A DNA stretch of 64,000 bases from Blastocladiella emersonii ATCC 22665 (lineage: Eukaryota; Fungi; Blastocladiomycota): contig JANHCV010000011.1 of assembly GCA_025594325.1 (NCBI GenBank), positions 930,001-994,000 on the forward strand. Direction: 5' to 3'. Made by a program: the position numbers and the translations under genes. The notes under the pieces are model-generated. The model ran no database searches, was not told where the DNA came from, and was given only the letters and a program-made list of their open reading frames with translations. Below, piece after piece: positions 42,012 to 64,000 of the stretch. How positions within the stretch are numbered: the stretch's first letter is position 1; each line of letters opens with the position of its first letter.

Positions 42012-43088
42012 ATGATAACGCCGGCACAGTTCCTCAAAAAACTGGCGACGTTTGACGTTGCGGCCATCGTCCCCAAGTACCAGCTTGCGCCGTGGCACAA
42101 CCTGGTCATGCCGTACAAGGACAAAGCCAAGCTCGTCTTCCTCGCGCTCAACGTCGCCAGCGACTACTGGCAACTGGGAGTGCCAACCGAGGCCCACGCG
42201 GTCGCGGCTGAGCGGCGTGCTGAGACGGCGGAGCGCCGCGCGTATGCGCTCAAGGTCAAGCTGCGGCAGACGCAGCAGAGCCAGCCGCTCAACGGTATCC
42301 TGCAGGGCGAGCTTGATAGCATCCAGGTCAGCAGCGCGCGCAGGCCGGGCGTGGGCGTTGATGGCTTCACGCTGGCCGCAATGCACGCGCTGATGCGCAT
42401 GAAGTTGGTTGACGGCGTCAACTTCAAGGTCAAGAGCGCCATCACGCAGTACGAGAGTATCCTCCAGCTCACGTTCAACGTCCCAGAGCAGTTCAAGGTT
42501 GCGCACTTCCACGGCAAGCTGACGGGCAAGGTGCTCAAGGCCATGGAGCTGGCAATGGCCGGGTCCAAGTTCGAGGACTACGGCTTGTTCAACGCCTACA
42601 TCTCCCTTGTCAAGTCGACGCAGCCAGCCGAGAAGTTGGAGACCAAGTACGCGCATGAGCTCAAGAACCTCAAGTACGTGCGCAGCGCCATGCCAGCGCG
42701 CGATTTTGTCTCCAAGTTCCGCCAGACCGCGTCCGGTGCAGGCTACTGCGCGCTCAGCAAGCTGGCAATGCAGTTCTACCTGGTGGTCACGGCCGGCAAC
42801 TCGCCGCTGGCCACAGACGTGGCCTTCGCCTCGCTGCGCAAGGGCTGCTGTTTTGACAAGATGGTCAAGCACTTCCTGGTGCACGAGGGCGGGGCGGCGG
42901 GCGTCGCGGCCGAGCTCGTCCCAGACCCAGACGCCATGGACGTTGGCGCGATTTGGCAGCGGGCGGCGGCGCACCAGGGCCGCGCCCTCACCAACATCAA
43001 GTGCTACAACTGCAAGGGCTACGGCCACAAGGCGGCTGATTGCCCGTCGCCCCCACGCTTGTCGTCGGGAAACGCCAGTCGGGCGTAG
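42012..43088 (+). CDS. gag: Gag with CCHC zinc knuckle
   Basis: Open frame directly after the LTR/PBS, containing CYNCKGYGHKAADC. Confidence 0.85.
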   Translation: MITPAQFLKKLATFDVAAIVPKYQLAPWHNLVMPYKDKAKLVFLALNVASDYWQLGVPTEAHAVAAERRAETAERRAYALKVKLRQTQQSQPLNGILQGELDSIQVSSARRPGVGVDGFTLAAMHALMRMKLVDGVNFKVKSAITQYESILQLTFNVPEQFKVAHFHGKLTGKVLKAMELAMAGSKFEDYGLFNAYISLVKSTQPAEKLETKYAHELKNLKYVRSAMPARDFVSKFRQTASGAGYCALSKLAMQFYLVVTAGNSPLATDVAFASLRKGCCFDKMVKHFLVHEGGAAGVAAELVPDPDAMDVGAIWQRAAAHQGRALTNIKCYNCKGYGHKAADCPSPPRLSSGNASRA

Positions 43089-43147
43089 CAGAGCAGGCCG
43101 CGACGTCCTCAAAGCCAAAACCTGCGGATTTGGGTGGTACAACAGCG

Positions 43148-46100
43148 ATGGCCACGGCGGCCGCCGCCGCGGACAAGATGTCAGTGCCTGCCAACAAGAA
43201 GAAAAAAATGAACAAAAAGAAGAAACAAAACATGAATGATAAGAAGACTAATGGAAAATCTGTTGCTGCGTACTTTGGTGCACTTGTGCGTCTAGAGATG
43301 GCGCAGGACCACCTGCACCTCAGCGGGCTCCTCGCGCATCCAGGGCTCCGCACGGCGCCAATCCCAACGTTCATGATGCTCAACATGGGCGCGCCGGTTA
43401 ACCTGATCAGCCGCAGGGTGGCCAAGCAGGCCGGGCTCATGCCGAAGCGCCTAGCGCGTCGCATCAACCTCTGCGGTGTTGTCGGGTCCGCGCCGGGCCA
43501 GCGCCAGTACATCTTGCATTACGTGCACGCGGCCGTGTCCGTCACGTCGCCCCAAGTTCCTGCACGCGGCGGTCGCGGGATCCCAAACCGTGTTCGCGGA
43601 CGGCGTTGTGCCTCCTGGCAACGCGTCCAAGCAGAAGCGCGTGGTGGGAGACGCGGGTCGCGCCATCAACATTCCGTGCCTTCATTGCTTGGTTGCGCGC
43701 TTCCTCGTTGTTGACTCTCCCGCGTTTCCGGTGATCATGGGACTTGAATGGATGGTCGCAAACGGCGCGAAGCCGGATCCGCGCTTGGCCACGGTCAAGA
43801 TTGACGGCGCGTGCACTGGTCGCTGCGGGTGCCCACCCGCCCAGCGCGTCACGGTGGCCACGGTCGCACTGCGCGTCGACCTTGACCCGCTCGCGTGGGA
43901 CGAGGCGCACGGCCCGCCCAAGGCGCCAGATGACGCGGCGCTGAAGCGCGTGCTGCCCGCCAAGTACCTCAAGTGGGCGCATGTCTTTGATGCCGCTGCG
44001 GCGTCCGCGCTCCCGCCGCACCAACTGTACAACTGCGAGATCGAGCTCATTGAGGGCGCCAAGGTGCCGTTCCTGCCCATCTACGCCCTGTCGCAGCCCA
44101 AACTTGAGGAGCTGCGCAAGACCATCAACAAGAACCTCGCGCGCGGCTTCATCCGCCCATTGCGGTCGCCAGCTGGCGCGCCAATCATGTTCGTGCCCAA
44201 GGAGGACGGGTCGCGCCGCATGTGCGTGGACTACCGCCGCCTCAACGCGCTGACGGTCAAGAACCGCTACGCGCTGCCGCTCATCGTGGAGCTCATGAAC
44301 CAAGTGCAGGGCGCGCGCATCTTCACCAAGTTCGACCTGCGCGGCGCGTACAACCTGGTCCGCATCCGCGAGGGCAACGAGTGGAAGACGGCGTTCCGCA
44401 CGCGCTATGGACATTATGAATGGATGGTGATGCCGTTTGGGCTGACCAACGCGCCGGCCGCGTTCCAGGCGTTTGTCAACAATGTGTTCCGCGACCTGCT
44501 TGACCGCCGCAGCGTTCTCGTGTACCTGGACACCATCCTCCTCTTCAGCGAGGACCCCAAAGAGCACACAGCGCTTGTCAAGGAGGTGCTGCAGCGGCTC
44601 GCCAACAACAAGCTGTATGTCAAGCTTGAGAAGTGCGAATTCGACGTGACGCGCGTCAAGTACCTCGGCCACATCCTGACCACTGAGGGCGTCGAGATGG
44701 ACCCGGCCAAGGTCCGCGCCGTGACCGAGTGGCCCGCGCCACGGACAGTCAAGGAGGTGCAGGCGTTCCTGGGCCTCGCCAACTGCTACCGCCGCTTCAT
44801 CCCCGAGTTCTTGGAACTGACCATCCCGCTCACCCGTCTTACGCAGAAAGACACGCCGTGGCAGTGGGGCGACACCGAGGCGGCGGCCTTTGCAGCCATC
44901 AAGACGTGGTTTGCGTCCGACCAGTTCCTCGCGCACCCCGACCCCTCAAAACCGTTCATTGTTGAGGCCGACGCGTCCAACTTCGCCATTGGGTGCGTCC
45001 TGTCGCAGGTTGACAATGAGGGCACGCTGTGGCCGGTCGCGTTCCACTTGCGCGCGCTCAAGGCGGCGGGGCTGAATTATCCCATCTTGGATAAGGAGCT
45101 GCTCGCCATCAAGGTCGCGTTTGAGATCTGGCGCCACCACCTCGAGGGCGCGCAGCACCCGGTTGAGGTGTACACAGACCACAAGAACCTCGAGCACTTT
45201 CGCACCATGACAGTCAAGTCGCAGCGGCACGCGCAGTGGGCACTGTTCCTTGAGCGGTTTTTGTTCTGGTTCACATACCGGCCCGGCGCAATCAACAGGC
45301 GCGCCAACGCGCTCTTGCGCCGCGCTGACTACGAGGCGCGCGACAACCCAATGCTTGGCCGCTCGATTGTCCCCGCCACGTTGCTCACGGTTGGCGCCAC
45401 GCTGGGCACGTCAGCGGGCAATGGCAAGGGGGAGGAGGACGGCAACCCGACCCACACGGCGATTCTGGACGGCATGCGCGACGACAAGTACGCGCAGAAG
45501 GTGCGGCGCAACCAGGCCAAGTACCCGCAGCTCGAGGTCGACCTCGATGGGTTCATCTGGCGCGAGGCCAAGCTGTACGTGCCTGCGGGCATCACGCGCA
45601 CACACGTGCTCAAGGAGGCGCACTCAACGCGGGTCGCGGGACATTTTGGCGTCGCGCGCACCATCAACCTGGTCGAGTGGTCGTACTGGTGGCCCAGGAT
45701 GCGCCGCGAGGTCGACCTGTTTGTCAAGTCGTGCCTCACCTGCGCGCGGGCCAAGGTGCCGCGTCATTGACCCGACGGCGAGCTGCAGCCACTGCCCACG
45801 CTGTCGCGGCTGTGGTCGTCGGTCTCCATGGACTTCATCACGGACCTGCCGCGCAGCAAGGGCATGACGTGCATCATGGTCGTGGTCGACTGGTTCTCCA
45901 AGATGACGCACTTCATCCCGCTCGCCGCGCTCCCAACGGCCGCCACGACTGCCAACGCCTTCATCAAGCACGTGGTGTGGCTGCACGGGCTGCCCGATGA
46001 CATTGTCTCAGACCGCGGGTTGCAGTTCACGTCGCGGTTCTGGTCAGCCATGTGCAAGTCGCTTGAGATCAAGGCCAAGCTCTCAACGGCGTACCAGCAG

Positions 46101-46901
46101 ACCAATGGGCAGACCAAGCGCATGAACCAGACCTTTGAGGTGTACCTGCGCATGTTCGCCAACGAGGACCAGTCAAACTGGGCCGAGCTGCTGCAGTACG
46201 CCAAGATGGCCATCAACAACACAGTCAACAAGTCAACGGGCATGTCGCCGTTCAAGGCCAACTACTTGTTTGACCCGCGGCTCTTGGCCGCGCCAGTGCG
46301 GTTGGATTGGGTCCCGTCGGCCGCCGCGCTGGCCAAGCGCATCGCTGACATCCAGGGCAAGCTGCGCGAGAAGGTCGAGCGCGCCAAGGAGCTGTACAAG
46401 AAGCACGCTGACTGCCGCCGCCACAAGGGCCCCAACTACAAGGTTGGCGACATGGTGCTGCTGAGCACCAAGAACCTGCGCGTCAACGTGCCCAAGGCCA
46501 AGCTCGGGCCCAAGTACATGGAGCCGCTCAAGATTGTGCGCCTCATCCGGAAATTGGCCATCGAGCTTGAGCTGCCGCCGACCATGGCGCGCGTCCATCC
46601 CATGTTCCACGTCTCGCTCATCAAGCCAATTGACAAGCACAACGAGGAGGCGTTCCCGGGCCGCGCACTGCCGCCGCCAACGCTGTACGCCGTCAACGGG
46701 CACGAGGAGTGGATGGTCGAGGCGATCTGCAACGCGCGCAAGGTCAGCTGCAGCGTCAAGTACCTGCTCAAGTGGCACAGCTGCCCTGAGGACAACAACA
46801 CCTGGGAGCCGTACGCGAACCTCAAGCACCTTGAGCTGCTTGCTGAGTTCCACGCGCAGAACCTGTCAAAACCCGACCTGTGGAGGGGGAAGGGGAGATA
46901 G
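43148..46901 (+). pseudogene. pol: Pol (PR-RT-RNase H-integrase-chromodomain), disrupted
   Basis: Protease site reads LNMGA (expected LDTGA). RT has MCVDYRRLN and YLDT (expected YLDD). RNase H has VEADAS and YTDHKNL. TGA at 45768-70 interrupts the integrase (SMDFITDLP, IVSDRG, QTNGQTKR). Chromodomain KYLLKW..NTWEP. Frameshift near 43.5 kb. Confidence 0.93.
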
Positions 46902-47075
46902 TGTCACGGTTCAGTGATCTGACGGCTTGGGCTGGTGGCGCGGGCTGGTGGCGCAGTCCCTCATAAGCCGAGCGTTGCCCTCGCTCTCCCTCTCTCTTGT
47001 CATTCGTGATACAATCCTTCATTATCCGGCTAGTCATTCCTCGTGGCGCAAGACCCTCCCCCTCAGCACCTTACA
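46899..47075 (+). repeat. 3' LTR
   Basis: Follows the PPT GGAGGGGGAAGGGGAGA; its first three bases (TAG) are the pol stop codon. Confidence 0.95.
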
Positions 47076-47080
47076 ATTGT

Positions 47081-49900
47081 TGACTAGCTTGCCAGGCATC
47101 ATGTTCATGTAGTTGCAGAAGTGGTTGATCCACCTGTGCCAGTCGCTGCCCTGCCTGAGCGTGTTCTTGAAGAGATTGAGCGCTGAACCATACACTCCTC
47201 AAGGAGTCAACTGCCAACTTGTCTCTAAAGAACCTTGCGCTGGTGACGTGCACCATGTGCGCAATGCTCAAGTGTTGCTGCAAGTCATGATGGTGCCCAA
47301 GGCGGCCACTACCACCAAGTTCCTCAATCTCTTGAAGTCCATGCCCGCGCCAAACCCTCTCCCTGTTCCCAGCACGTTTGGCCTGCCTTGTCCTTATGTC
47401 TGGCTGCCATGACGGGCTAGTATCCCGCCAGAGTGGAACAACGTTGCTCTGCACAACACTGGGGATCGCTCTAGATGGCAGTACGTCCTCTCATCCTTCT
47501 GACCCTGCTCACCCTTTGCATAGACTGCGCCATCCACAAGACGTGCAAGGACTCACTAGACTGAGGCAAGCTGCCTGTGATCTCCCCTGCAAACATTGGC
47601 GATCCTGGCAATCGCCCCAAGTGCCTCAAGATTTTGACGCGCGTCAAGGAGGTTTTGATCTTGCGCGTTCACCCCATGATCTATGTCTTCAAGTTTGGGT
47701 ACAGCTGCAACAAGCGTACGCACCAGCCCTTCATGAAGGGCAACTGCATTGCGTTCCTGCAAAACACGCAGAGAAGCTTTGAGGCCATGTTGCTGGTAGT
47801 TGGGGATGTGGGCAAAGCTGTATGTTGTGTATACCCACGTCTCCTTGCCCTTGCGGATCAGGTCAAGCGCAATCTGCTGGCTGCTGATTTTGCAAGACGT
47901 TGTTGAGCAGTTGACAAGTCCGCACAGGATGGAGCCAGCTGCAAGAGGGAGCAGCACCACCAAGTTGAGTTGGCACTTGCGCAGCTTCTTGGCATGCTTG
48001 AGGAGGGCGTACATGTTGGACAAGGATGGTGGCAAGTTGGCAACGTAGTTGGTGATGTAGTAGATGACGTTGGCGGGGTTGGCAGCTGGCTAGGTTCTTG
48101 ATGTCCATGTTTGGATGGTCAGGTTGTACAAGTTGATCCAGTGGTGCAATCGCCAGTGGACTGCAACAGCCTTGAGCTCACCCGTTTCTGGATCTGGAAC
48201 GAGCTTGATGAGCGTCACCTTGTGGACAATCTTGCCATTGGTGCCAAAGTGGAACCAACAAAGTAGCAGCTCACCTGGCTGCACGTTCTTGTAGCACATG
48301 CACCTGTGCTTGTGCATCATGCCTTCCTGGAGGGCGTGGTTCATTGATGGCTGTGTCAAACAACTTGGGCAAACTGGTCCACGCTGGATGCTTGCTGCCC
48401 GTGAGGTCAAAGGGCTTCCACGTGCCTGCAAGCTTGCCAACTGTTGTGCACCAGACCGGAGCCACTTCGCCGGGTTGCATGCTGTGGAGCAGACCAGCTG
48501 CACGTTGACTTGCACACAAGAACTGTGTGAGTGGCAGCGCTGCAGCGGGAGGTACGCCGCAGCACACGCGTCTATTGTCAAGCAAATATAGGCCGTTGCT
48601 GACAACGCCATCAAGGTACGCAGTGATGCAGTCGAGGTACAGTTGACTAAGTAGCTGGATGTTGTGTTCAATCTTGGCCTGACTTGGCACGTTGGGGCTT
48701 TTGACAAGGACATGGATGTGCAGCGTGCTGCGCCCCTGCGTGCGCCTCGATGATGCCATAGTACCCCTTGATGGGACCAAGAACGCCAGGTCGCTGAGCT
48801 GTGCCCATGATCAGGTTGTTGAGGATTGTTGTGATGACTGTGTTGAAGTAACAACTCGCCTCCCACTCTGAAATCCGTCTGCCTGCGCTTGCAATCAAAC
48901 AAACGCCACCTTCCACAAACGTGCTGCTTGCCCTGCTGCTCGCCCACCCGTCCGCTGGCCCCTCCCTCCCATAAGATCCCCGCCCTCCCCTGCCCCTCCC
49001 CTCCACGCTTGCCACGATGCCCTACTTGACAATGCCATAGTACCTCTCAATGGGACTGAGAACGCTGGGTCACTGAGACGTGCCCATGATCAGGTCATCA
49101 AAGATGGTTGTGACAACTGTGTCAAAAAACCAATTGGCAGCCACTGGATTGCGTGCCGCAAACACTCAACGCTTGTGCGCCTGTGCAAACTTTCTGTCCA
49201 TGTCCATGACAAAGTTGCGCAAGAAACCCGCCATGATGGCAACAATTTGCGAGTTGACGTCATACGGGTTGAGCGTCACAAAAAAGTCTGGCAGGCCCAA
49301 GAAGAGAACAGGGCGCGCATCTCCTGCCGCCTGGTTTGCAGCCAGCTTGGAGATCTGGGTGCGCGGGCGCCGGCGATCTGGACCCATTGAAGGAGACTAC
49401 AAACTTGACCATTGAGCTGCACTGTCTTACCCTGCTTGGCAAGCTCAAGGTTTGTGTCCAGCGTGGCAAGCAAGATGCCATCCATGGTCGCTGCGGATGT
49501 GTTGTAGAGTGTGCAAGGAACACAACACCACGTCTCAGACCCAATGAGCTTCTTGAGGATCATGTTGTTCACGACAGACATGAAGGTGCTGTGCTCAGCA
49601 AAACGACTGTCTGTGTTTAGGAGGAGCGCTTGAGCGTGGCTGCGCCACGGTGCGCGCTTGTGGTTGAACCCGCCAGCGCTGTACAGGAAGTGCACTGGAA
49701 ACGCCATGGCCGTGAGCCTGATTGAGTACTCGCTCACAGGCATCAAGCCCATAGGCACCTGCAGCACTTGAGCAGGCAGATCAGTTGAGCCACAGCCTGC
49801 GCCGCCGGGTCGCGTGTTCATGATTATGTAGAGTTGTTGGAGGGACTGCACAACGACTGAGTTGTTGTTGTTTGGGTTGCGGAACACGCCAACCAACTCA
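47081..49900 (-). pseudogene. Degenerate Helitron Rep/helicase
   Basis: Fragments MAFPVHFLYSAGG..DSRFAEHSTF, PDFFVTLNPYD (~49265-85), LGPIKGYYG..QGRSTLHIHVLV (HUH motif, ~48703-23), HWINLYN and VIYYITNYVA (~48045-65), followed by decayed helicase-like sequence. Many frameshifts and stops. Confidence 0.8.
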
Positions 49901-50388
49901 AAGAGCGCTACGGCGAGGTGATCAAGTCAGTGATCAGGCCGTGTTTCAGGTTGTGCCACGGCACATGAGTGGCGCATGGCGAGAGCAAGTCGCGTACCCT
50001 CGAGTCAAGGGTTGCATGGACTCAGTACCTACCCGTAGGTAACTGGTAGGTATACACCTTTTCAGCTCAGTTTTGGAGGTACAATGTACAGAAATTTTTT
50101 TTCAGGGACCCTCCCCAAAGGTATCAGGTACTGCGATTTTGGGGTAGGTATTGTCCAGCATTTTACACAGGAAGGTACAAGGTATTGAGGTTTTGGCGGG
50201 AGGGTAGGTACAAGGTACTGGCTTCCTGAGAAGCCAAGGTACTGGGTATCAGTGCGGGAACCTGTGTTTGAGGAGATCAACCATTGTTATTGCAGGCTAG
50301 GAAAGATCTTGGGATTAATAACGATGGGACGAAGGAATAAGGTAAAGCGGGGCTCAATAAGCTCAACCTGTTTGTTGACAACTAGATC

Positions 50389-50642
50389 TATGGCACATCA
50401 GCTTGCAAGGTGATGGGTGCACATAACCTCACAAGCTGATAGGTGCACATCAGCTCACAAGTTGATGGGTGCACATTGGCTCACAAGCTGATGGGTGCAC
50501 ATCAGCTCACAAGCTGATGGGTGCACATTGGCTCACAAGCTGATGGGTGCACATCAGCTCACAGGTTATGGGTGCACATCAGCTCACGGGTTATGGGTGC
50601 ACATCAGCTCACAAGCTGATGGGTGCACATCAGCTCATGAGC
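50389..50642. repeat. 25-26-bp hairpin minisatellite, ~10 copies (consensus TGATGGGTGCACATCAGCTCACAAGC)
   Basis: Units start at 50411, 50437, 50463, 50489, 50515, 50541, 50567, 50592 and 50617, plus a degenerate first copy. Consensus-type units can form an AGCTGATG/CATCAGCT stem. Confidence 0.9.
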
Positions 50643-53101: not shown

Positions 53102-53542
53102 ATGACCTGGCCCGTGCCGTACATCGTTGCAGCCTTCATCCTTCTCAAAGCCCGCATCCGCGCCGACCCCTCTCTGACCCTCCTCCAAGCCACTCAGCTT
53201 GTTGCTGGCAACAGCGTCGCTGCCCGCGCCCGCCTCCTTTGTGACAAACTCCCCCAGCCCCGCAAACTCGATCCGCCCCCTCACTGCCTTGAAAACGTGG
53301 CGGACGCCGCGCGCTGCGTCCTTTGCTCGGCTTCCCTGCCCGCTCGCTTCGCTTTGTTGCCATGGGCCGATATGGCCCAGAGACCCTACAACGAGCTGTG
53401 CGCGCATGAAAAGCGTCTCACCGGTGCGGCGAAGGCTGCGACTGCTGCCGCTCGGGCCTCGCGCGCCGCTACCGAGCAGGCCCGTGATGATCTCGCGGCC
53501 CGCGTGCAGGCTGCAGCGCTGCTGTTGGTACAACGCGACTAA
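53102..53542 (+). CDS. Hypothetical protein
   Basis: 146-aa ATG-started ORF with a hydrophobic N-terminus and an Ala-rich helical C-terminus; no family recognised. Confidence 0.3.
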   Translation: MTWPVPYIVAAFILLKARIRADPSLTLLQATQLVAGNSVAARARLLCDKLPQPRKLDPPPHCLENVADAARCVLCSASLPARFALLPWADMAQRPYNELCAHEKRLTGAAKAATAAARASRAATEQARDDLAARVQAAALLLVQRD

Positions 53543-53643
53543 AACCGCCGCAAACGTGACGTAAACCACTGCAAGAGCGACAGCCTGACGGTCCATGGTG
53601 ATTTCATGCAGTTGCGTGTGCTTGTGGGGACGGCGTATGTGTT

Positions 53644-54268
53644 GTATCCCTTAAGGGATACGACATGGGCTGACCCACTGCCACTCGGGCTGACCAATTG
53701 CTTACCCCGAGCGGTCGGCGACAGTCACTCGGGGTAACCACGTGAGACCCCGTTGCTTACCCCAGGTGGTTAATAAAATGTTGGATTCAAATGTCGTGTT
53801 CCCTTAGGGAACACGACACGCGGACGGAGGCCGAAGGCCAAAGCAGGTGGGCGGGAGGGTGGGTGGAAGGGAGGGGCGAGCGGTCCAGGAGTGAGTCCCT
53901 GACCTGACCCCCAAGCCCGTCCCTAACCAACCCCTTGGGCTGACCATTGCTTACCCCGAGCGGTCGGCGGCGGCCGGCGAGCGCAGCGAGATGAAGAGCA
54001 GCGCAGCTGCGGCTACCCACTGACAGAGTTCCCTGGTCTGGTCCCTGAGCACGGCTGCGAGTCGATCTGCGAGTTGATCTGCGAGACAAGTCCGAGAGCA
54101 GATCCCTGAGCCCGTCCCTGACCAACCACTCAGGCTGACCATTGCTTACCCCGAGCGGTCGGCGGCAGCCGGCGAGCGCAGCGAGACGAAGAGCAGCGCA
54201 GCTGCGGCTACCCACTGACAGAGTTCCCTGGTCTGGTCCCTGAGCACAGCTGCAAGTCGATCTGTGAG
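53644..54268. repeat. Repeat/hairpin cluster: two related hairpins plus a ~160-bp direct repeat with 195-bp period
   Basis: Palindrome GTATCCCTTAAGGGATAC (53644-61); hairpin TGTCGTGTTCCC-TTA-GGGAACACGACA (53792-818); repeats at 53914-54073 and 54109-54268, with a partial copy at 53687-720. Confidence 0.85.
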
Positions 54269-54341
54269 CAGTCCCCGAGCCAGTCCCCGAGCCAGTCCCT
54301 GACCACCTGCCGCGAGCGGCTGCTATGAAGCCGTTCACCGT

Positions 54342-54418
54342 AAAAGTTCCACTTTTCGCTCAAAAACAGGTAGGTATATATATACACTGCCCCTTTTTGA
54401 GCGAAAAGTGGAACTTTT
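54342..54418. repeat. AT-rich 77-bp inverted repeat with perfect 25-bp arms
   Basis: AAAAGTTCCACTTTTCGCTCAAAAA (54342-66) and its exact reverse complement (54394-418) flank a 27-nt spacer containing GTATATATATAC. Confidence 0.95.
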
Positions 54419-54628
54419 CAGAGACAAGAGGTCAGGGTACAGGGGGTCAGGGCAGGGGAGCGTCTTAGCAGCATCAATGTATTAAACAAAGACAAAGGGT
54501 CAGGGTACGGGGGGTCAGGGGCAGGGGAGCGTCTTAGCAGGCATCGTGGCAGGTCGTGGACTGTCTTAGGGCTTGTTGATGAGCTTGTCGTAGACCTCAT
54601 CCAGGTCCAGCTCCAGGACAAACGGCGC

Positions 54629-57577
54629 CTACTCGGCCGGGGCAGTGGTCCAGGTCTTGTACATGACAAAGTAGTTGATGTCTTCCGTCCACTTCAGGTT
54701 AGTGTACTTCTTGCCACGAATTGTGACCTGGCGGTTGTCCTTGTCTGGCACAGCAAGGCACTTGTTAAAGTAAGTGCTGAGAAGCCTGTTTAGGACTGTT
54801 GCTGTGTCACACTTGTAATACCCAAGCTTCTTGAAGTACTTGTGGATGTCTGCTTCAAACGTGGCGGGGATGGTGGCCTGGATGTTGAACTCCTTGGACG
54901 TGCGGAGGTCCATGCCGTTGTGGTCAAGGAGCTTGTGCAGGACGTGGGCCTTGTCCTTGGTGTAAAAGTACTGGATACGTTCCATGAAGCGCTCGGCGTT
55001 GTCGTCCCAGATGGCCTCCATGTTGTTCTCGCTCAGACCCTTGAACTTGCGGATGAAGAAGGCCTTGCGGACGGAGAGGCAGATGGTCCAGTCTGGGTCC
55101 TCGAGTGTACCCTGGCAGTGGTCGCGCAGGGTCTCCTTGGATGGAAGCTGGACGTTTGCCCAGTCAAAGGACCAGCCCGATGTCATGACATCCTCAATCT
55201 CGGGGTGCGCCTTGTAGTAGTACTCGGGGGAGTCGTCCATGACAATGTTGGCAACCTTGCGGAAGGCGTCAAAGACCTTGAGGCACAAGGTCACAGCGGC
55301 CATCTCGTTCTCGAGATCCGTGTTCTTGACAATGGCCTGGTGAAGTTTGCCGACCAAGTCCGAGTTAATGACCTGGGACTTGTTCATGTACGCGCCGTGG
55401 CAACCATTGCTGATCATGAACACGATCTCGTTGTCAATGGGGTAGCGCACGCAGTAGATTGCCTGGAAGAAGTCGCGGGCAGGGACCCAGGACTCGTAGC
55501 GCGCGTACACCTTGTGGAAGACGTCTGGCTTTGAAAAGTTGACCCCCACAGTGATCTTGAGGTTGGCAATGACTATACGGACTGTATCGTCGCCCCACAC
55601 AGAGTCAGGGTCAATGAGTTCCTTGTCCTCGTGGTTGGGGCGGTCGCCGTGGTAGAGCTTGATCTGCTTGCCAATCTTCCACGTCTCCTCGGCAAAGACC
55701 CGCTCGAGGTACTCGCCAAAGGTCTGCACCAACCACTTGGTTGACTTCTTGCATGGTCGTGGGAGGAAGAGGTAGAGCTTCTTGTTGGCCTTGAGGTCGG
55801 CAATGATGTTGCTCTCCATGATGTCTTCGGCGGACTTCTTGTTGTCCTTGTCGTCGGTGATGAGGCTCATCTTGCGCGGCTCAAACTTCTTGCCGAGCGT
55901 GTTTGTGATCACCTTGATCTTACCATGGAGTGTGGTCTTGATGTTGTGCTCGACAGTAAAGGAGCGGAGGACGTCCATGGTCAGGTTCGTGACAAACGCG
56001 TCCATGAAGATACCCTTGCTGCCCTTGTGCTCGCACAGCGTCTTGAAGGCCTTGAGGTTGGCCTCAAGGTTGTTGCGAATGGTGGTTGTGTGCAACTTGG
56101 CGTCCTGGAACATCTTGAGGACTGTCTCGGACTTGTCCACCACAACAATGTTGTAGGGCTCGGTCAAGTAGTGCAGCGAGCACGGCGAGACAATGAGTCG
56201 CTTGTGATCCCCCAGTGTCTTCTTGTCCTTGATGCTGCGGTAGTTGACAAAGCCAAGCTTCTGTTCGCAGGCTCAACCCTCGGTGTTGTGGGCCAGGGTG
56301 ATGCGAGGTGTGATCCAGACCACTTGCGCGTCTGGGTACTTGGCAATGTAGTCGCAAACAGCGCCCGTCTTGTTGGAGCCCATGCCCGTGGCCAGCACGT
56401 TGAACTTGGCCAGGGTAATGTTGTCGCAGGACAGGAACTGGTTGGGGCTGGTCACGTCCACTGGTACCTCAAGCGACTGCTCAAACTTGGCCATGGCCTT
56501 GGACTTGAACGCGGCTGGGAACCGCTTGTAGAAGATGGCCTTGACAAACGTGTCCAGCACTGGGTAGTTGTTGTTGCTGGCAATCTCGTTCCATTGGTCC
56601 CAGTACTTTTGCATGCGCTGAGCCGAGTTGTCCTGCTGCGACGTCCACGCCCAGAACTGGTCAAATGTGACCCCTTTGCGCATGGCCCATGTCATGATCC
56701 GCCAGGTCACGTTGTTGTGGAATGCGTTCTCGGGGCTGACAGGGAGGTTGTGGAGGATCTCAAGTGGCGTGGCGTCGTAGTAGAAGAAGTCGGGGTCGAT
56801 CTGCACGTCCTTGAACTCGGGGATGTCGAGGTTGTAGTCAAAGCGACCCTTGCGGCGCTTGGCCCGCGCTGCCTTGGCCTCGGCAGACACAAACTCAACA
56901 AAGGACAGGTCCGAGATCGGCACGCAGTTGGGGTCAAAGCCGTACTGGATCAGATGCTTGGACAGGCGGTCCTTGTTCCCTGCCTTGAACGTGCCGGGTG
57001 TCTTCTTGGGCTTGGACTGGTTGATGCACTTCATGAAGCGGTGCTTGCTGTACACGCTGGCGTCAAAGCCGAGCTTGACGTGGTCGGGGTGGCTGCAGAA
57101 CAGCTTCAGGAACGACATGTCCTTGAGCGTGGCCGTGTAGTTGCTGAGGACAATGTGCCACGACTTTTTGAGGTCCGTCTCGTAGCCGCAGACCTGGAGG
57201 TTGGCGCCGGGGAACTGGGCCAGGATGACCTTCTTGATGACGTCCAGCGTCACGTCCTTGTTGTTGCCCGGGCAGTCAATGTCAAAGTAGACCTTGGACA
57301 GGCGCTCGGGGTGGACCATCTCCTGGATGCAGCGGTTCTTGTTGAGGAGCCCAGCCAGGCCCACCGTCTTGACCTTGGCAAAATAGTGCGCCGCCTTGGG
57401 TTCGCCATGGTTGTCGACGCCCTTGTCAACAAGGCGCTTGATGACCGTCTCGTTGTCTTGCAGCTCGGAGAGGAGCTTGCGCTGAGGGCCCATGTCGCTG
57501 CCGCCGCCGTCCTTGCCGTGGAACCACTCAAGACCAAAGGCAGTGCCAGCTGTACCAGGAACCTGCTTGCAAGGCAT
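54629..57577 (-). pseudogene. AEP primase-polymerase (PrimPol) + PriCT-2-like + UL9/origin-binding-protein-like SF2 helicase fusion (~982 aa), with one in-frame TGA
   Basis: AEP motifs VYFDID, KKSWHIVL and FDASVYSKHR. Helical segment TWRIMTWAMRKGVTFDQFWAWT. Helicase motifs GMGSNKT, VVWITPRITLA, VVVDKSETVL, IVIANLKITVGVNF and FFQAIYCVR. ORFs 56273-57577 and 54629-56167 share one frame, separated by TGA at 56273-75 with 35 open codons in between. Confidence 0.85.
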
Positions 57578-57617
57578 CTTGTTATGATGAGGCGACAGAA
57601 AAGGTGACAGGGCAGGT

Positions 57618-57629
57618 GCGTTTAAACGC
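57618..57629 (-). promoter_or_regulatory. Palindromic upstream motif GCGTTTAAACGC
   Basis: 40 nt upstream of the primase-helicase ATG; near-identical copy at 58719-30. Confidence 0.55.
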
Positions 57630-57769
57630 GCAGGATTTAGCGCTAATGGCTGTGACCCGGGAGCCCTTGTTGGCATGGCCCATGACTTGCCACTGTCCTG
57701 ACCCAGGCCCGGCTGCCCTTGCGTGACCTGTCCCTGACCCAGACACGACCTCCCCCATGACCCCGACTT

Positions 57770-58646
57770 GGGAGCCAGTTGAGGCCGAGGTCACGATCCT
57801 TGAACCGTGACCTGGGCAGCGACTGAGGGCAAAGTCACAGACCCCCCAGGAGCCCAACTTGGGAGCCAATCGCGTCTCAGGTCACGATCCTTGAACCGTG
57901 ACCTGGGCAGCGACTGAGGGCAAAGTCACGGACCCCCCCAGGAGCCCAACTTGGGAGCCAGTAGGGTCCGAGGTCACAAACCTCTCAAACCGTGACCTGG
58001 GCAGCAACTGAGGGCAAAGTCACAGACCCCCCATGCTCCCAACTTGGGAGCCAATCGCGTCTCAGGTCACGATCCTTGAACCGTGACCTGGGCAGCGACT
58101 GAGGGCAAAGTCACAGACCCCCCAGGAGCCCAACTTGGGAGCCAATCGCGTCTCAGGTCACAATCCTTGAACCGTGACCTGGGCAGCGACTGAGGGCAAA
58201 GTCACAGACCCCCCAGGAGCCCAACTTGGGAGCCAGTAGGGTCCGAGGTCACGAACCTCTCAAACCGTGACCTGGGCAGCGACTGAGGGCAAAGTCACAG
58301 ACCCCCCAGGAGCCCAACTTGGGAGCCAATCGCGTCTCAGGTCACGATCCTTGAACCGTGACCTGGGCAGCGACTGAGGGCAAAGTCACGGACCCCCCCA
58401 GGAGCCCAACTTGGGAGCCAGTAGGGTCCGAGGTCACAAACCTCTCAAACCGTGACCTGGGCAGCAACTGAGGGCAAAGTCACAGACCCCCCATGCTCCC
58501 AACTTGGGAGCCAATCGCGTCTCAGGTCACGATCCTTGAACCGTGACCTGGGCAGCGACTGAGGGCAAAGTCACGGACCCCCCCCCAGGAGCCCAACTTG
58601 GGAGCCAATCGCGTCTCAGGTCACAATCCTTGAACCGTGACCTGGG
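57770..58646. repeat. Tandem array of 91-94-bp dyad-containing units (~9.5 copies, two variants)
   Basis: Units start (GGGAGCCA) at 57770, 57861, 57953, 58046, 58137, 58228, 58321, 58413, 58506 and 58600. Each contains an AGGTCAC..GTGACCT dyad and a CCCAA-C-TTGGG dyad at the junction. Confidence 0.97.
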
Positions 58647-58718
58647 CCCTCCCACGGTCCATGACTTGCCACCACCCTGACCCTGACCCAGGCCCAGCTA
58701 CCCAGAAAAAAGAACGTT

Positions 58719-58730
58719 GCGTTCAAACGC
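58719..58730 (+). promoter_or_regulatory. Upstream motif GCGTTCAAACGC
   Basis: 41 nt upstream of the tyrosine recombinase ATG; mirror of the motif at 57618. Confidence 0.55.
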
Positions 58731-58771
58731 ACTTGAGCCCATGGAGCCTTTTTGTTGACAGTCAGTAAACC

Positions 58772-59908
58772 ATGGCGCTTGACTCTCTTGCCTCCCAGGT
58801 CGCCATTGCCCTCGCTCAGCACTTTGCCACCGATGTAGTGCACCAAGTGCTTGATGGTATCAAGCCGCTGCTGACATCCTTTGACGAGCGGCTCAAGGGA
58901 GTTGAGACCAGCCTCGCCGCGCTGGCTGCAGTGTCACGTAACTGCAATCACCGTCCCAATCACACCCCCGTCGACGAGTCTGGCGAGCCCATGGACACTG
59001 ACCCCCAGGTCAAGTACGCGCAGATGACCGAGGAATCCATTGCGGCGTGCGTCAACGCGCGTGTTCAGAACAAGCACGGGGAACTGGTTGAGCTGAGCGA
59101 CACGGACAAGGCCAAGACATCCCGCGTGCTCTGTGCCTTTGCCAAGTCGGGCATGGACATTGAAGACGTTGACGCCGTGTCCAAAGCTGTGGCAGCGTAC
59201 CGCGCGTCCAAGGGCGAGCAGGGGCTGCAGGTCGAGACGCTCAAGGCCCTGGCCAAGTACTGCACCTGGAACGGGTGGACCGAACTCGGGGCCAAGTACA
59301 CAGAGGCCAAGAAGCAGGATGCTGCCGACTTCCGCGACGCGCGCAAGGAACTTGAGTCTGGTGCGCTCCCGAGCCGTGACGCCATTTGCGCCGCTATTGT
59401 TGATGCAAAGGGCTTGGGCACGGGGCTCCTGCGTCTGTACCTCCAAGTTGTGAGTGCGGTGCGCTCCGACCCTGCGTTCCTGACCACGAAGCCAACCACT
59501 GGGTACCCGTACTACGACCCAGAGACCCAGATTCTGGCCGGCGATGTCATTGTCAAGACAGAGGGCTGTGGCTACAACTTCTTGCACACAGTTAGTGAGC
59601 CCAAGGTCGCCGCCGCTCTCAAGCGTATCCTCGCCCAGCGTCTCGCCAAAGGTCATGACTTTGTCTTCAACAACTACACCCTCAAGGAGCTCAAGGACAC
59701 CACGCTCCGCAAGAGGGTTAGCAGCACCTGGTGTACGTCGATTAGTCGGGCTGCAAAGACGGTCGGCTTTGAGGATGGCGGCGTGGCAGTGATCCGCCGT
59801 ATCTCCACCAGTGAGAACTTTGCTGCGCAGCAAGCTATTGCCAAACGCGCGCACGAGATGGGTCACAGCGTCCCCGTTGCGCTGACCTACTACATGACGC
59901 CTCAGTAA
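58772..59908 (+). CDS. Tyrosine recombinase of the PLV/virophage/NCLDV type, 378 aa
   Basis: Catalytic residues in the expected order: R (SAVRSD), K (IVKT), R (VIRRIS), H (EMGHS) and Y (VALTYY) near the C-terminus. Confidence 0.7.
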   Translation: MALDSLASQVAIALAQHFATDVVHQVLDGIKPLLTSFDERLKGVETSLAALAAVSRNCNHRPNHTPVDESGEPMDTDPQVKYAQMTEESIAACVNARVQNKHGELVELSDTDKAKTSRVLCAFAKSGMDIEDVDAVSKAVAAYRASKGEQGLQVETLKALAKYCTWNGWTELGAKYTEAKKQDAADFRDARKELESGALPSRDAICAAIVDAKGLGTGLLRLYLQVVSAVRSDPAFLTTKPTTGYPYYDPETQILAGDVIVKTEGCGYNFLHTVSEPKVAAALKRILAQRLAKGHDFVFNNYTLKELKDTTLRKRVSSTWCTSISRAAKTVGFEDGGVAVIRRISTSENFAAQQAIAKRAHEMGHSVPVALTYYMTPQ

Positions 59909-59936
59909 TCCTTTTGTCTCCGCCTTTGTTAATACA

Positions 59937-61049
59937 ATGTATGCCCACAAAGAACCTTTGACTGCTGAACAGACCGAGTACCTGAAAGACTTGTACTACA
60001 AACGCGGCCATGTTGGGGTCGGGATCCACCGTCTCTTTGACATTGTTGACCGCGAGCATACAGGGAAGCACATTTACCGCGCCCAGCTCGAGCGGTGGCT
60101 CAATGACCAGTCCGTGTGGCAGCAGTACAAGCGCGCACCTCAGAAGCGCCGAGACATTCAAAGCATCAACTCAACAAGTCCTGGCCGCAACTTTCAGCTC
60201 GACCTCATTGACATGGGCGAAAACGGTACGTACAAGGGCTTCCGTTACATTCTCACGTGTGTCGACCTGGCGAGCCGCCGCGTCTACCTCCAACCCATCA
60301 AGACCAAGGACAAGACGCAGGAAGCATGGTCCAGCGTGGTTGCCAAGCACAGCCTTACACCTGCCACGATCCAGACAGACAATGGGACTGAGTTCTTTGG
60401 CATAGAGGCCGGGACCGAGGCCAAGCACATCAAGGGCAAGGCAGGAGTGCCATACGGTCAAGGTGTTGTTGAACGCATGAACGGGACCATCTGCCGGATG
60501 CTCACACCGTGGCTGTCCATCCCGGGCAACAACGACTGGCCCAAGCACCTCAAGACCATTGAATCTGTGATCAACAGCAGCAAGTCGAGGGCCACAAGCA
60601 AGGCACCCAACGCGTTCCATGACATGCCCTGCGAAACGGCCAAGCAAGAGCTCAAGGAGATCCAAGCTGCCAAGGGCAAGCCCGAGGGCGACCCTCTGAG
60701 CGCGTTGTTGAAGGTAGGGACCCAGGTCCGAGTCCGCGAGCCGTACAAGACTGCCATGGAGGCCAAGGGGAAGCCGGTCTGGTTGACAACTGTGAGCCAG
60801 GTCCAGGTTGTGCGCAAGGGGTCGGGCGTAAGCAATCCGAGCTACAAGGTCCAAGGCCTCAAGGGCTTCTACCCTCGAAGCGACGTCCAGCCAGTCACAG
60901 CGACCCAGGACCCGCCAACAAGGCAGCGTGTAGGTCCAGGTCTTCCAAGGCTCCCTGTTGCGCGCACCCCAGTCACGCCAAGGGAGCCCTCGACCCGGGT
61001 CAGGCGCGTCCCAGTCCGAGTCCAAGAAAAGTGGGACCGCGGGCTTTAG
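59937..61049 (+). CDS. Retroviral-like (rve) DDE integrase, Maverick/Polinton type, 370 aa
   Basis: Motifs LKDLYY..G..RL..WLNDQ, FQLDLIDM, YILTCVDLASR, IQTDNGTEF, GQGVVERMNGTI, WPKHL..INSS, LKVGTQVRV and GFYPRSDVQPV. The DDE triad is intact. Confidence 0.92.
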   Translation: MYAHKEPLTAEQTEYLKDLYYKRGHVGVGIHRLFDIVDREHTGKHIYRAQLERWLNDQSVWQQYKRAPQKRRDIQSINSTSPGRNFQLDLIDMGENGTYKGFRYILTCVDLASRRVYLQPIKTKDKTQEAWSSVVAKHSLTPATIQTDNGTEFFGIEAGTEAKHIKGKAGVPYGQGVVERMNGTICRMLTPWLSIPGNNDWPKHLKTIESVINSSKSRATSKAPNAFHDMPCETAKQELKEIQAAKGKPEGDPLSALLKVGTQVRVREPYKTAMEAKGKPVWLTTVSQVQVVRKGSGVSNPSYKVQGLKGFYPRSDVQPVTATQDPPTRQRVGPGLPRLPVARTPVTPREPSTRVRRVPVRVQEKWDRGL

Positions 61050-62989
61050 AGCAGGGTCCAGTGGCTTTGAATGATGACCTGGCAGTCGTTGGCAACTGCG
61101 ACTGACGGGATCCAGATGAAAGAGTAGCTCTTGGCCGCGTCAAGGTACTCAATGCTCGAGAACTGAAGGAACTGGATGTTGCCTTCAGCGCGGCACCCAG
61201 TGACAAGCGACACTGCAATCATGTCCGTCATATTGTACAGCGCAAAGTTCACAGTGTGGGCTCCAGGGAGCGCGCCGTTTGCGTAGTAGCCCTTTGCATG
61301 GACAAGGTAGTAGCCACTGACAGGGGGTTTGATGCATCCATTGATCACAGACGTGAACGCGCCCGCCGTGGACTGGAACGCAAAGGTGGCCGGGCCCGTT
61401 GATGCTGTGCCGCCAATGATCTTGCCGCCCGTGGTCACTCCGTTTGTAGAGCGGTGCTTGGCCTGAGCGACGTACCGGGTCGTGCCGGACCGCGAGTCAA
61501 CGTACGCCTTGTTTGCCGCGTCGGTGCCTGCCACTGGAGCGAGGTCAAGGGTGAGCTGCCCTGTGAAGCGACCAGTGCCATTGACGCGGAGCCTTTCTGT
61601 GCCAAGCATCGCTGAGCCCACAACCACATTGCCGCCACCTGCCACAAGGGAGACCCCGCCCGTGGTTGCAGACGCAATCTCAATGTTACCCGCCGCTGTG
61701 CATGCCAGGTTGCTTCGCAGTACGCCTGCCTGCTTAAAGTCGACGTACGTCAATGTATTGGCAGCCGAGTCAAAGACAAGGTTTGCGCTTGTGGCATTCC
61801 GGACCAGGACGTTGGGCACAGTCAGTTGCTTGCCAACTCCAAGACCACCAGCAATGGTGACTGCTCCAGTGCTTGATGTCAAACTGTCCGTCGTATTCGC
61901 AAAGGCAAAGGCAGCGCCAAGCCCAAGGGTGGACTGGGGGAGCGTGCCAGCGACCGAGGCTGCGCTCACCGCCGTGACCTTGGCCGAGACGTCGGGGAGT
62001 CGTGCCAGGTCAATGGTCCCTGCAAGCTTGGCCGAGTCAATGCCAGATGCCAGCTTGGCGTTGGTCAGGGTCCCGTCGGCGATGCGGGCAGGGTCGAGGA
62101 TCCCAGTGAGCTTGACCGCCGACACGTCTGTGACCTTGGCGTCCGTGACCGCGCCTGCTGCCAGGTGGGCCGTTCCAATGGACCCAACGTTGAGCTTGGC
62201 CCCATCGATGCCAGTTGCCAGCTTGGCGTTGGTCACGGCCGCGTCTGCCAGGACCAGGGAGCCGACCGTGCCCGCTGCCAGCTTGGACCTGTCGATGCCA
62301 GCTGCCACCTTGGCGTTGGATACGGCACCATCTGCCAGGGCTCCCGTCCCAATAGTCCCTGCAACGAGCTTGGACTCAGACACGGACGCGACCTTGGCAT
62401 CTGTGACTGCCAGGTCAACGAGAGCCGCCGTGCCGACCGTGCCTGCCACAAGCTTGGACCCGGACATGGACGCGACCTTGGCATCAGTCACTGAGCCGTC
62501 TGCCAGGACCGAGGTCCCGACTGTGCCTGCCACGAGCTTGGACCCAGACACGGACGCAACCTTGGCATCTGTCACTGAGCCGTCTGCCAGGACCGAGATT
62601 CCGACGGCTGGGAGGTTGGACGCACTGAGCACGCCCACGACCTTGGACGCAGACACAGTGTCCAGCTGAGCATCAACGAGCTTGCCGGTGACCTGTCCTG
62701 CTGTAATCGTGGCGACCTTGTCGGCCGTGACGCTGGCCGGGAGCAGCTGTGCCGTGCCGACTGACTTGACATAGAGCCCTGCTGCGCCCACGCCAAGGGT
62801 CTGGTCGTCGACCTTGGTCGAGACAGTGGTCCCTGAGACTGCCACGCCAGGGCCAGCAACAGGTGCGCCGACCGTGGCGTACACAGCACTGATGGCCGCG
62901 TCAACGTAGGCCTTGGACACGTCCGGGACCCCCGTGGTAGACACGGTTGGAGACGCAGTACTTGAGACGTTAAAGATATTCTTGACCAT
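61046..62989 (-). CDS. Fibre/spike-like virion protein, ~647 aa
   Basis: Several ~28-aa (84-bp) repeats LADGSVTDAKVASVSGSKLVAGTVGTSV; xxKAYVD motifs near both ends (SKAYVD, DAANKAYVD); beta-rich C-terminal head (IKPPVSGYYLVHA). Confidence 0.65.
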   Translation of the reverse strand: MVKNIFNVSSTASPTVSTTGVPDVSKAYVDAAISAVYATVGAPVAGPGVAVSGTTVSTKVDDQTLGVGAAGLYVKSVGTAQLLPASVTADKVATITAGQVTGKLVDAQLDTVSASKVVGVLSASNLPAVGISVLADGSVTDAKVASVSGSKLVAGTVGTSVLADGSVTDAKVASMSGSKLVAGTVGTAALVDLAVTDAKVASVSESKLVAGTIGTGALADGAVSNAKVAAGIDRSKLAAGTVGSLVLADAAVTNAKLATGIDGAKLNVGSIGTAHLAAGAVTDAKVTDVSAVKLTGILDPARIADGTLTNAKLASGIDSAKLAGTIDLARLPDVSAKVTAVSAASVAGTLPQSTLGLGAAFAFANTTDSLTSSTGAVTIAGGLGVGKQLTVPNVLVRNATSANLVFDSAANTLTYVDFKQAGVLRSNLACTAAGNIEIASATTGGVSLVAGGGNVVVGSAMLGTERLRVNGTGRFTGQLTLDLAPVAGTDAANKAYVDSRSGTTRYVAQAKHRSTNGVTTGGKIIGGTASTGPATFAFQSTAGAFTSVINGCIKPPVSGYYLVHAKGYYANGALPGAHTVNFALYNMTDMIAVSLVTGCRAEGNIQFLQFSSIEYLDAAKSYSFIWIPSVAVANDCQVIIQSHWTLL

Positions 62990-63009
62990 GTTTAACCTTA
63001 AGCAACAGA

Positions 63010-63261
63010 ATGATTTCCAGCGACCATGACCTGAGCCTGGACGAGTGGCGGGAGCACCTCGCCGAGACCATGCCCGTGCCAAGCAGCTGGTACAGCAAGA
63101 GCGACAAGGACAAGGCCAAGTGGCTACGGAAGCGCGACCGCAAGGCCAACCGGTACACGCACGTTGACGACGAGGCAGCGCGGGCAGAGCGGGTCAAGAT
63201 CCGGATCTACAAGGCACTCAACGCCAAGCGCCAGGACCAGGGGGCAAATAGCACCGTCTGA
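63010..63261 (+). CDS. Small basic hypothetical protein, 83 aa
   Basis: ATG-started ORF with element-like codon usage, filling the gap between the fibre gene and the next ORF. Confidence 0.55.
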   Translation: MISSDHDLSLDEWREHLAETMPVPSSWYSKSDKDKAKWLRKRDRKANRYTHVDDEAARAERVKIRIYKALNAKRQDQGANSTV

Positions 63262-63338
63262 GGGACAAAAGGCACCTGCCACGGGGAAAAAGGTACCGAC
63301 AGGGGGACGTTTTATTTTCGGTCCATACAGTAACCATC

Positions 63339-64000
63339 ATGGGCCGAAGAACAGTACCAGAACTACTTGCAAGAGTGACCAAGGCAACCAACGGCCGCAT
63401 CACGGCTGAGCGCCTTGCAGGGCAGAAGATCAAGGCGACCATTGATGGCCGCGAGTACACGTTCCCCAATGCCAAAGAGCTCCTCGACGTCTGGGTGCCT
63501 TACATCCTTGCCTTTGACTACAAGGTGACGCCCGAGAGCTATGCCAACGACTTTGGCCGCAAACGAGGCGACTCGCTGTTCTACCTCAAGCACCAGGACG
63601 GCGTCACTGGGTACGAGGTCAAGGACCTCCAGGAGCACGTCCAAGACACGCTTAAAGCGTGGGAAGAGCACCAGGCAACGGGCAAGGTCACTCGAGTCCC
63701 AGTTGCTCCACCAGCGGCAAGCCCCAGACCAGAGGCCCCCGAGTTGGCCACGGACAGCAACAGGGGCAGCAGCGAAGAGGAGCGCGACGAGCTGGCAGAA
63801 GAGATCTCGCGAGCCCTGGACGTCATTGACGAGGACGCTGTACCGGACCACTTGCTCCCCGTGCCCGTCCGGCCAGTCATGCCCGAGCAGTACCCGGTCA
63901 AGGCCGGCGACTATGTTGGTCAAGACATTGACAAGTACGGCGCCATGATCCCCGGCCAGTACCTGATCCAGAATGACAATGACGGCGGCAACGACCCGCC
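63339..64000 (+). CDS. Hypothetical protein of the element, truncated by the window end (absent from the ORF track)
   Basis: ATG at 63339 opens MGRRTVPELLARVTKATNGRITAERLAGQKIKATIDGREYTFPNAKELLDVWVPY..., which stays open to 64000. Confidence 0.7.
   Translation, partial: MGRRTVPELLARVTKATNGRITAERLAGQKIKATIDGREYTFPNAKELLDVWVPYILAFDYKVTPESYANDFGRKRGDSLFYLKHQDGVTGYEVKDLQEHVQDTLKAWEEHQATGKVTRVPVAPPAASPRPEAPELATDSNRGSSEEERDELAEEISRALDVIDEDAVPDHLLPVPVRPVMPEQYPVKAGDYVGQDIDKYGAMIPGQYLIQNDNDGGNDP

Follow-up and report, generated by a model that had tools for sequence, protein, structure and literature searches.

The 64,000-nucleotide stretch of Blastocladiella emersonii ATCC 22665 analysed here, referred to as the window, ends in an element that is real, well bounded, multi-copy and related to viruses. 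In the open reading frame (ORF) listing of the window, six frames are tightly packed at 54,629-64,000, in the left part of the element, and from the recombinase gene onward they are separated by gaps of 28, −4, 20 and 77 bp. The visible portion of the element is 10.4 kb long and runs off the window at 64,000. An earlier interpretation made from the letters alone (the sequence-only reading) had described at least six packed frames at this locus, and the six seen here proved to encode a primase-helicase (the replicase), a tyrosine recombinase, an rve integrase, a fibre-like repeat protein and two orphans. It had placed the start of the element at 54,342; the actual start is at 53,640, about 700 bp further left. 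The features are listed below in their order along the window.

53,640-53,665, no strand: left end of the element, a 26-bp palindrome TG...CA with one mismatch, located by contig junctions with unlike flanks and a rise in depth
53,666-54,341, no strand: non-coding terminal region, with a 195-bp tandem repeat at 53,914-54,268 and repeated short motifs
53,792-53,818, no strand: second, related palindrome of 27 bp, a putative recombinase site
54,342-54,418, no strand: strong hairpin of 77 bp whose loop is AT-rich, on the downstream side of the replicase gene
54,629-57,577, minus strand: broken replicase of 982 codons, with an AEP primase, a helical domain and a UL9-like superfamily 2 helicase, assigned by motifs, profiles and a structural model
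57,752-58,647, no strand: tandem repeat array, 9.7 units each 91-94 bp long, separating the divergently oriented replicase and recombinase genes
58,772-59,908, plus strand: tyrosine recombinase of the OLV11-like type, 378 aa (305 aa in the annotation, which starts at the second Met), assigned by profile, motifs and the fold of its N-terminal domain
59,937-61,049, plus strand: rve integrase, 370 aa, with an SH3-like tail and no chromodomain (Pfam rve E 1.6e-6, below the curated cut-off)
61,046-62,989, minus strand: fibre-like protein, 647 aa, with repeats of 28-29 residues and a C1q-like C-terminal part, assigned by Pfam, PHROGs and Atlas
63,010-63,261, plus strand: orphan ORF, 83 aa, annotated in two other copies
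63,339-64,000, plus strand: orphan ORF, 220 aa, running off the window

Genes and repeats of the element

The three AEP motifs and the helicase motifs can be seen in the replicase alignment, together with a helical, aromatic segment that is conserved. Pfam Herpes_ori_bp matches 17 of the 31 aligned replicases and PriCT_2 matches none, so that of the PrimPol-PriCT2-UL9 fusion proposed earlier the AEP primase and the UL9-like helicase stand, and the PriCT-2 domain is not confirmed. Between primase and helicase lies a helical domain, at residues 271-368 in the predicted model of a sister copy (P0004). A profile of 102 replicase sequences finds a match in HSV-1 UL9 (E 1e-28) and a weak one in human PrimPol (E 0.004), and the P0004 model, which has a pLDDT of 87, resembles UL9, the AEP domains of poxvirus D5/E5 and PrimPol. 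The top viral structural match is A0A0A0RKB1 (full-length, E 8e-47, TM 0.52, 22% identity), listed in Table S7 of PMC7805220 as the origin-binding helicase of Yellowstone Lake virophage 7. Giant-virus helicases occupy ranks 2-18 of the same search, the best of these next matches having an E value of 2e-32.

The sequence-only reading took the replicase for an intact ORF. Its frame is interrupted by an in-frame TGA at 56,273-56,275, codon 435, and reading this codon as X gives the 982 residues; the window copy also has changes in Walker B (D481-K482) and in motif VI (C709). Across the 14 replicase copies of B. emersonii, Walker B is canonical in eight, has the Lys form in three and is non-matching in three. 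A true intron over the stop was considered and rejected, since the annotated gene model drops 20 residues that include helicase motif Ia, which other copies retain. For mobility, the window copy would need a replicase made by another copy.

The protein encoded beside the array was identified as a tyrosine recombinase, as proposed earlier, by its profile, by alignment of an R-K-R-H-Y motif set and by an Xer-like N-terminal domain. Residues R231, K262, R342, H365 and Y373 fall on conserved motifs, and an Arg stands in place of the His that would follow the second Arg; the catalytic set is accompanied by the LRH and MGHS motifs and the core-binding domain of OLV11-like recombinases, a name taken from PMC4642659. 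A profile of recombinases from viral loci matches the 378-aa protein at E 3.7e-6, and at 1.2e-8 after iteration. A profile-to-profile alignment was weak (probability 40%, E 3e-4), with eight control profiles at 0.3% or less, and a Pfam search of the 378-aa protein gave no match. Its structural model is poor (pLDDT 45) and Foldseek returned nothing at E 0.001, yet the top eight rows were all Cre, XerA or TelA. In this low-confidence model, the N-terminal domain matches the core-binding domains of Xer, Cre and lambda integrase, best an Xer recombinase (Z 9.8, rmsd 2.1, 90 residues). A protelomerase role at the palindrome was considered; the sequence motifs favour an OLV11-like enzyme.

The rve integrase that the sequence-only reading had named has an intact DDE triad, D89-D148-E179, which is invariant in 23 sequences. 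In the integrase tree it groups with three Allomyces integrases (support 0.98). The possibility that it was borrowed from a Gypsy element elsewhere in the window was rejected, the two lying far apart in the tree.

As for the fibre gene predicted earlier, the repeat protein is there, with tail-fibre matches (Pfam Phage_Tail_Tip E 5e-9; PHROGs tail fibre E 4e-6) and a C-terminal half that resembles viral C1q-domain clusters (Atlas feature score 0.92; 26 of 30 matches); no significant match was found among solved structures. The fibre role itself is likely, on matches that are driven by the repeats. The 83-aa orphan recurs at H9P43_005398 and H9P43_009691, the former four tags past replicase 005394. 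The 220-aa orphan has no match in Pfam, PHROGs or Atlas.

Each unit of the array bears a short dyad, GGTCAC-N10-12-GTGACC. Two units that were tested fold little or no better than shuffled sequences (z −1.8 and −0.6), and repeated binding sites are therefore a better description of them than hairpins; the "origin-like hairpin array" of the earlier reading was right about the dyads and overstated as to hairpins. The array is a candidate replication origin by analogy. The separate 77-bp hairpin folds at −30.4 kcal/mol, z −12.1 against 200 shuffles. Array unit number varies in some other copies, as seen at contig joints, and no Rfam family was found within 50-64 kb of the window.

The left end was located from public sequencing runs. 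In three of four runs, contigs with long flanks unlike each other join at 53,635-53,640 (3, 4 and 3 contigs; agreement 0.48-0.56). Near 53.4 kb the summed contig depth, which is used as a step and is no copy number, rises from 16-31 to 81-183 (run X1), and it stays high on to 64 kb except over the array. The window has only three palindromes of this size, and 300 shuffles of 53,640-54,628 produced not one. The region at 53,666-54,341 is a candidate arm of a terminal inverted repeat. An IMG/VR scan with the terminal palindrome gave no match. The insertion site lies within a low-copy repeat (53,518-53,643); two contigs run past 53,643 into other sequence, a possible uninterrupted target, and one contig has the same junction and diverges left of 53,518.

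Copies and decay in the host genome

The window replicase corresponds to H9P43_008336 of B. emersonii ATCC 22665 at 939 of 940 aligned residues. Looking for other copies, a check suggested by the sequence-only reading, yielded 14 replicase genes on 10 contigs, with 59-97% mutual identity, and 20 recombinase genes, both counts being taken from annotated B. emersonii proteins. Twelve of the 14 replicases adjoin a recombinase, by locus tag or, for the window copy, by sequence (the exceptions are 009605 and 007415), and an rve gene lies downstream of the recombinase in three other copies (009102, 005396 and the fused model 008593). A set of unrelated transposons lying side by side was rejected on the conserved gene order and the single terminus. 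The earlier proposal of a single integrated, virus-related element of an early-diverging fungus is thus upheld, given a multi-copy family whose gene order is kept elsewhere. It had also contrasted the element with intron-rich host genes, and this is not uniformly so, as the NAT10 gene is one stop-free frame of 1,235 codons. Replicase and recombinase subtypes are mixed across the copies; for example, recombinases from three clusters accompany the replicases of a single 90% cluster. This mixing points to recombination among the copies.

The element has a GC content of 59%, against 69% for host DNA at 1-32 kb, and its CpG observed/expected ratio is 0.78, against 1.29. Among rare substitutions in the 14 replicase copies, 103 of 267 fit a single C>T or G>A change and 45 the reverse, with R>C, E>K, D>N and R>H at the head of the spectrum. 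CpG depletion and the C>T/G>A-led spectrum suggest, at the level of sequence, that host methylation is eroding the copies.

Beyond B. emersonii, relatives of the replicase are found in Allomyces arbusculus, A. javanicus, A. macrogynus, Phlyctochytrium and Borealophlyctis, and relatives of the rve integrase in A. arbusculus and A. javanicus. Allomyces contigs of 14.6-15.0 kb were considered as complete genomes and set aside, as the rve and replicase genes are on different contigs of similar size. Bacterial origin or contamination was likewise rejected: only two matches were found among 185,579 prokaryote genomes, both on contigs of metagenome-assembled genomes (MAGs), and the one examined (L160) is virus-like.

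Viral relatives and the nature of the element

Evidence on the class of the element comes from the gene neighbourhoods of viral relatives. Of 82 related stretches found in IMG/VR, 80 were retained as loci, in a few cases two of them lying on the same contig. An A32 ATPase is encoded no further than 10 kb from the replicase at 46 of these loci, an OLV11-like recombinase at 42 and a protease at 21. Within the same distance, a major capsid gene is present at 41 loci, of virophage type at 18 and of the type of polinton-like viruses (PLVs) at 16, and 60 have a capsid, penton or ATPase gene. The virophage capsid, penton and ATPase labels were verified by Pfam, while the PLV-type capsid has no Pfam match and is labelled by position and by 93% profile similarity to a cluster with a weak Capsid_N match. 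An rve gene occurs at three of the 80 loci, none of them with a detectable recombinase. Since 41 of the 80 loci carry a major capsid gene nearby, the replicase is placed in a virophage/PLV replicase family; none of the 80 falls inside the fungal replicase clade. IMG/VR scans with single proteins or fungal-only patterns (replicase, recombinase, chytrid-type ATPase and a second pattern set) were empty.

A metagenome scan gave 186 relatives, of which 78 loci were kept and those up to L118 placed in the tree. It added members to the fungal replicase clade (FastTree 0.999), among them L086 and L085. L086 has an ATPase gene and a PLV-type capsid gene, the sole capsid gene found inside this clade. 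L085, a soil metagenome contig, is sister to the Borealophlyctis replicase, has a weak recombinase-like gene (E 6e-4), and encodes an A32 ATPase 79% identical to a Rhizophlyctis protein. With P0233, P0236 and P0243 it makes up a chytrid-associated PLV-like group whose ATPases are 69-79% identical to Rhizophlyctis rosea proteins. L159 carries ATPase, recombinase and rve genes, in that order, with a jelly-roll capsid gene and an adenain-like protease, and L160 (CBCXTS010000015.1, 21 kb) has replicase, recombinase and rve in the order of the window together with an A32 ATPase and capsid-like genes. The L160 contig is misbinned in an alphaproteobacterial MAG. Its positions 15,170-15,320, directly after rve, hold three 43-bp repeats and a small TGT...ACA palindrome, with GC content passing from about 33% to 49%, and this looks like the end of an integrated PLV. 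On L041, a PLV-sized contig, an ORF at 772-1,683 that by eye resembles a secreted glycoside hydrolase lies beside rve and replicase genes.

The sequence-only reading held that the gene set fits no standard class. AEP-UL9-like replicases are annotated in virophages and PLVs (PMC7805220 Tables S6/S7), with origin-binding PrimPol-helicases in the virophage, GKS1 and Trimcap groups (PMC7805220), and AEP-SF2 fusions are described as a sizable minority in bioRxiv 10.64898/2026.10.13.758929, which pairs AEP with recombinases and DDE with PolB. Both integrases together, without the protein-primed DNA polymerase pPolB, are known from the mid-GC endogenous mavirus-like elements (EMALEs; PMC8547959), and the trio of replicase, recombinase and rve occurs in the capsid-bearing contig L160. 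The gene set is therefore a new fungal lineage and not a new class, and two integrases are uncommon but precedented. The element has a primase-helicase of a PLV family and both kinds of PLV integration enzyme. It shares the rve integrase with Mavericks/Polintons; pPolB was not seen in the visible 10.4 kb, where an AEP-SF2 replicase takes its place. HUH and VLTF genes were not seen in a Pfam scan of the window. PLVs in Spizellomyces, and capsid, ATPase and helicase genes in A. macrogynus, have been reported (PMC7805220), and A. macrogynus also has a replicase of the window type. Chytrid ATPases are placed in two positions among Aquintoviruses (bioRxiv 10.64898/2026.06.19.733378). These data make it probable that the element belongs to a lineage of PLVs integrated in Blastocladiales and subject to decay through CpG-type mutation, with capsid and packaging genes predicted beyond 64,000.

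A mechanism can be proposed for such integrated PLVs. DDE integrases of the rve family act on TG...CA ends, so rve would insert the linear genome into host chromosomes via its TG end. The UL9-like helicase may bind the dyad array as an origin and open it, by analogy with UL9 at oriS. The replicase would then prime with its own AEP domain, and bulk synthesis would fall to a host or helper polymerase. The recombinase may act on the terminal palindromes to circularise or resolve genomes; alternatively it may insert genomes into a helper giant virus, as proposed for EMALEs (PMC8547959). A particle is implied by the presence of the fibre gene, and the fibre would decorate a double-jelly-roll particle.

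Several points weigh against assignment to integrated PLVs. As the sequence-only reading had already noted for capsid genes, the window contains no capsid, penton or ATPase gene. Nor was any such gene seen for another Blastocladiella copy: a search with a chytrid-type ATPase found 16 proteins, none from Blastocladiales, among only 72 candidates, which is too insensitive to exclude an ATPase gene. Replicases swap between capsid types, both in the tree and in published work (bioRxiv 10.64898/2026.10.13.758929), and the capsid type can therefore not be read off from the kinship of the replicase. The branch sister to the fungal replicases has a weak position in the tree (0.63-0.87). The accessible part of PMC7805220 does not state that the A. 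macrogynus helicase is the window-type replicase. The four public runs behind the terminus all come from one sample, the array is a candidate origin by analogy, and the choice of rve over the recombinase as the inserting enzyme is drawn from the TG start only.

That no capsid gene was found would also be expected if the element were a PLV derivative without a capsid, either a self-replicating transposon or a transpoviron-like element. It would keep the replicase, the origin and two integrases, and would either spread in the genome or use the particle of a helper virus. The 14-20 copies are consistent with such an element, as are replication-integration modules that move apart from capsid genes (bioRxiv 10.64898/2026.10.13.758929). 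The 647-aa fibre-like gene is still open, though, and would be useless without a particle; moreover, only 10.4 kb are visible, whereas the relatives are mostly 15-30 kb long and have capsid genes. We therefore regard this explanation as unlikely.

A true virophage (Lavidaviridae) provirus resembling the mid-GC EMALEs, dependent on a giant virus and with a Sputnik-type capsid and protease downstream, would account for the virophage protein being the best structural match, for the virophage-type capsids (18) and proteases (21) among the 80 loci, and for the shared enzyme set (PMC8547959); giant viruses also infect Allomyces (PMC13533422). It is nonetheless quite improbable, as the one capsid gene within the fungal replicase clade, that of L086, is PLV-type and the published fungal elements are PLVs, not virophages (PMC7805220, bioRxiv 10.64898/2026.06.19.733378). 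Least credible of all is a fragment of an integrated giant virus (Mycodnaviridae) or Mriyavirus: these can carry UL9-like helicases (ranks 2-18 in the structure search; AEP-SF2 helicases in some Yaraviridae, 10.1101/2024.02.29.582850) and Polinton-like integrases (Mycodnaviridae contigs, PMC13533422), but the virophage match leads by 15 orders of magnitude, the unit is compact, has a discrete terminus and is repeated on 12 contigs, contigs shorter than 31 kb hold 77 of the 80 related viral loci, and Mriyaviruses are reported to lack integrases (bioRxiv 10.64898/2026.06.19.733378), of which this element has two.

A family of 14-20 copies with replicase and integrase clades of its own, present in Blastocladiella and three Allomyces species, points to long-standing infection of a culturable lineage. 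No double-stranded DNA virus of such size has been isolated from a fungus, according to bioRxiv 10.1101/2025.04.19.649669, and a large protist survey of PLV insertions omitted fungi (PMC10120064). No paper was found on Polintons in Blastocladiella or on endogenous viral elements in B. emersonii, although the supplements of a 7,103-genome survey and of the 2026 PLV framework could list such loci; none of the literature matches examined for Blastocladi- with virophage describes this family in its accessible text. Of 58 Allomyces isolates, 30 were PCR-positive for giant viruses (PMC13533422). The element may act as a satellite of these giant viruses of Allomyces. A fuller form of this idea, possible but doubtful, is an active virophage-like provirus family of Blastocladiales parasitising Mycodnaviridae, in which rve would store the genome in chromosomes, the recombinase would insert it into the giant-virus genome, and infection would reactivate it. 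If this is true, no earlier antiviral satellite of the kind would be known from fungi, and cultures of Allomyces and Blastocladiella would allow a direct test of what the two integrases are for. The family lends itself to two questions: what makes some polisuviruses retain two integrases, and whether fungi gain protection from PLVs.

Other features lie to the left of the element. A full-length chromovirus-type Gypsy retrotransposon at 41,782-47,074 encodes a gag zinc knuckle, reverse transcriptase, RNase H, rve, SH3 and a chromodomain; it has long terminal repeats of about 175 bp and an apparent ATTGT target-site duplication, is multi-copy by depth, and interrupts the region beside a decayed Helitron. 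This degraded Helitron-like region (47,100-50,600; CpG 0.56; weak Helitron_like_N match) contains a 26-bp tandem repeat at 50,393-50,637. At 33,000-36,444 there is an island of 59% GC without CpG depletion, including a 431-codon frame (35,149-36,444) with no Pfam match. By eye, two divergent genes at 28,900-32,900 resemble cyclopropane fatty-acid synthase-type methyltransferases, and a putative tRNA-like sequence lies near 39,900-40,100.

Comparison with known systems

Close parallels exist with PLVs (Aquintoviricetes and related groups, including the Spizellomyces punctatus group and the Allomyces macrogynus elements), which share integration in zoosporic fungi, a primase-helicase in place of pPolB, an OLV11-like recombinase, compact genes and a terminal repeat region (PMC7805220; bioRxiv 10.64898/2026.06.19.733378). 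The window element differs in carrying rve as well as the recombinase, where the published pairings are AEP with recombinase and DDE with pPolB, and its replicase and rve form Blastocladiales clades of their own. Mavericks/Polintons (Polintoviricetes) are alike in an rve integrase with a DDE triad and SH3-like tail and in multi-copy chromosomal insertion; unlike them, the window element has an AEP-SF2 replicase and a recombinase, and no pPolB in the 10.4 kb seen.

Among virophages, the helicase of Yellowstone Lake virophage 7 (A0A0A0RKB1; clusters PC_0108/0233/0360, PMC7805220) has full-length structural likeness to the replicase, but it is the gene of a free virophage, at 22% identity, and not of a fungal provirus. 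The mid-GC EMALEs of Cafeteria burkhardae (PMC8547959) combine rve, a tyrosine recombinase and a long primase-helicase, lack pPolB and have many dispersed insertions, as here. This likeness is one of gene set; EMALEs have a virophage capsid and protease, neither of which is seen in the window, and the host of the window element is a fungus. L160 matches the window in the families and order of replicase, recombinase and rve. L160 differs in that the three genes share a strand without an intervening array, that its rve bears a chromodomain, that capsid-like and ATPase genes can be seen, and that GC content is 30-42%.

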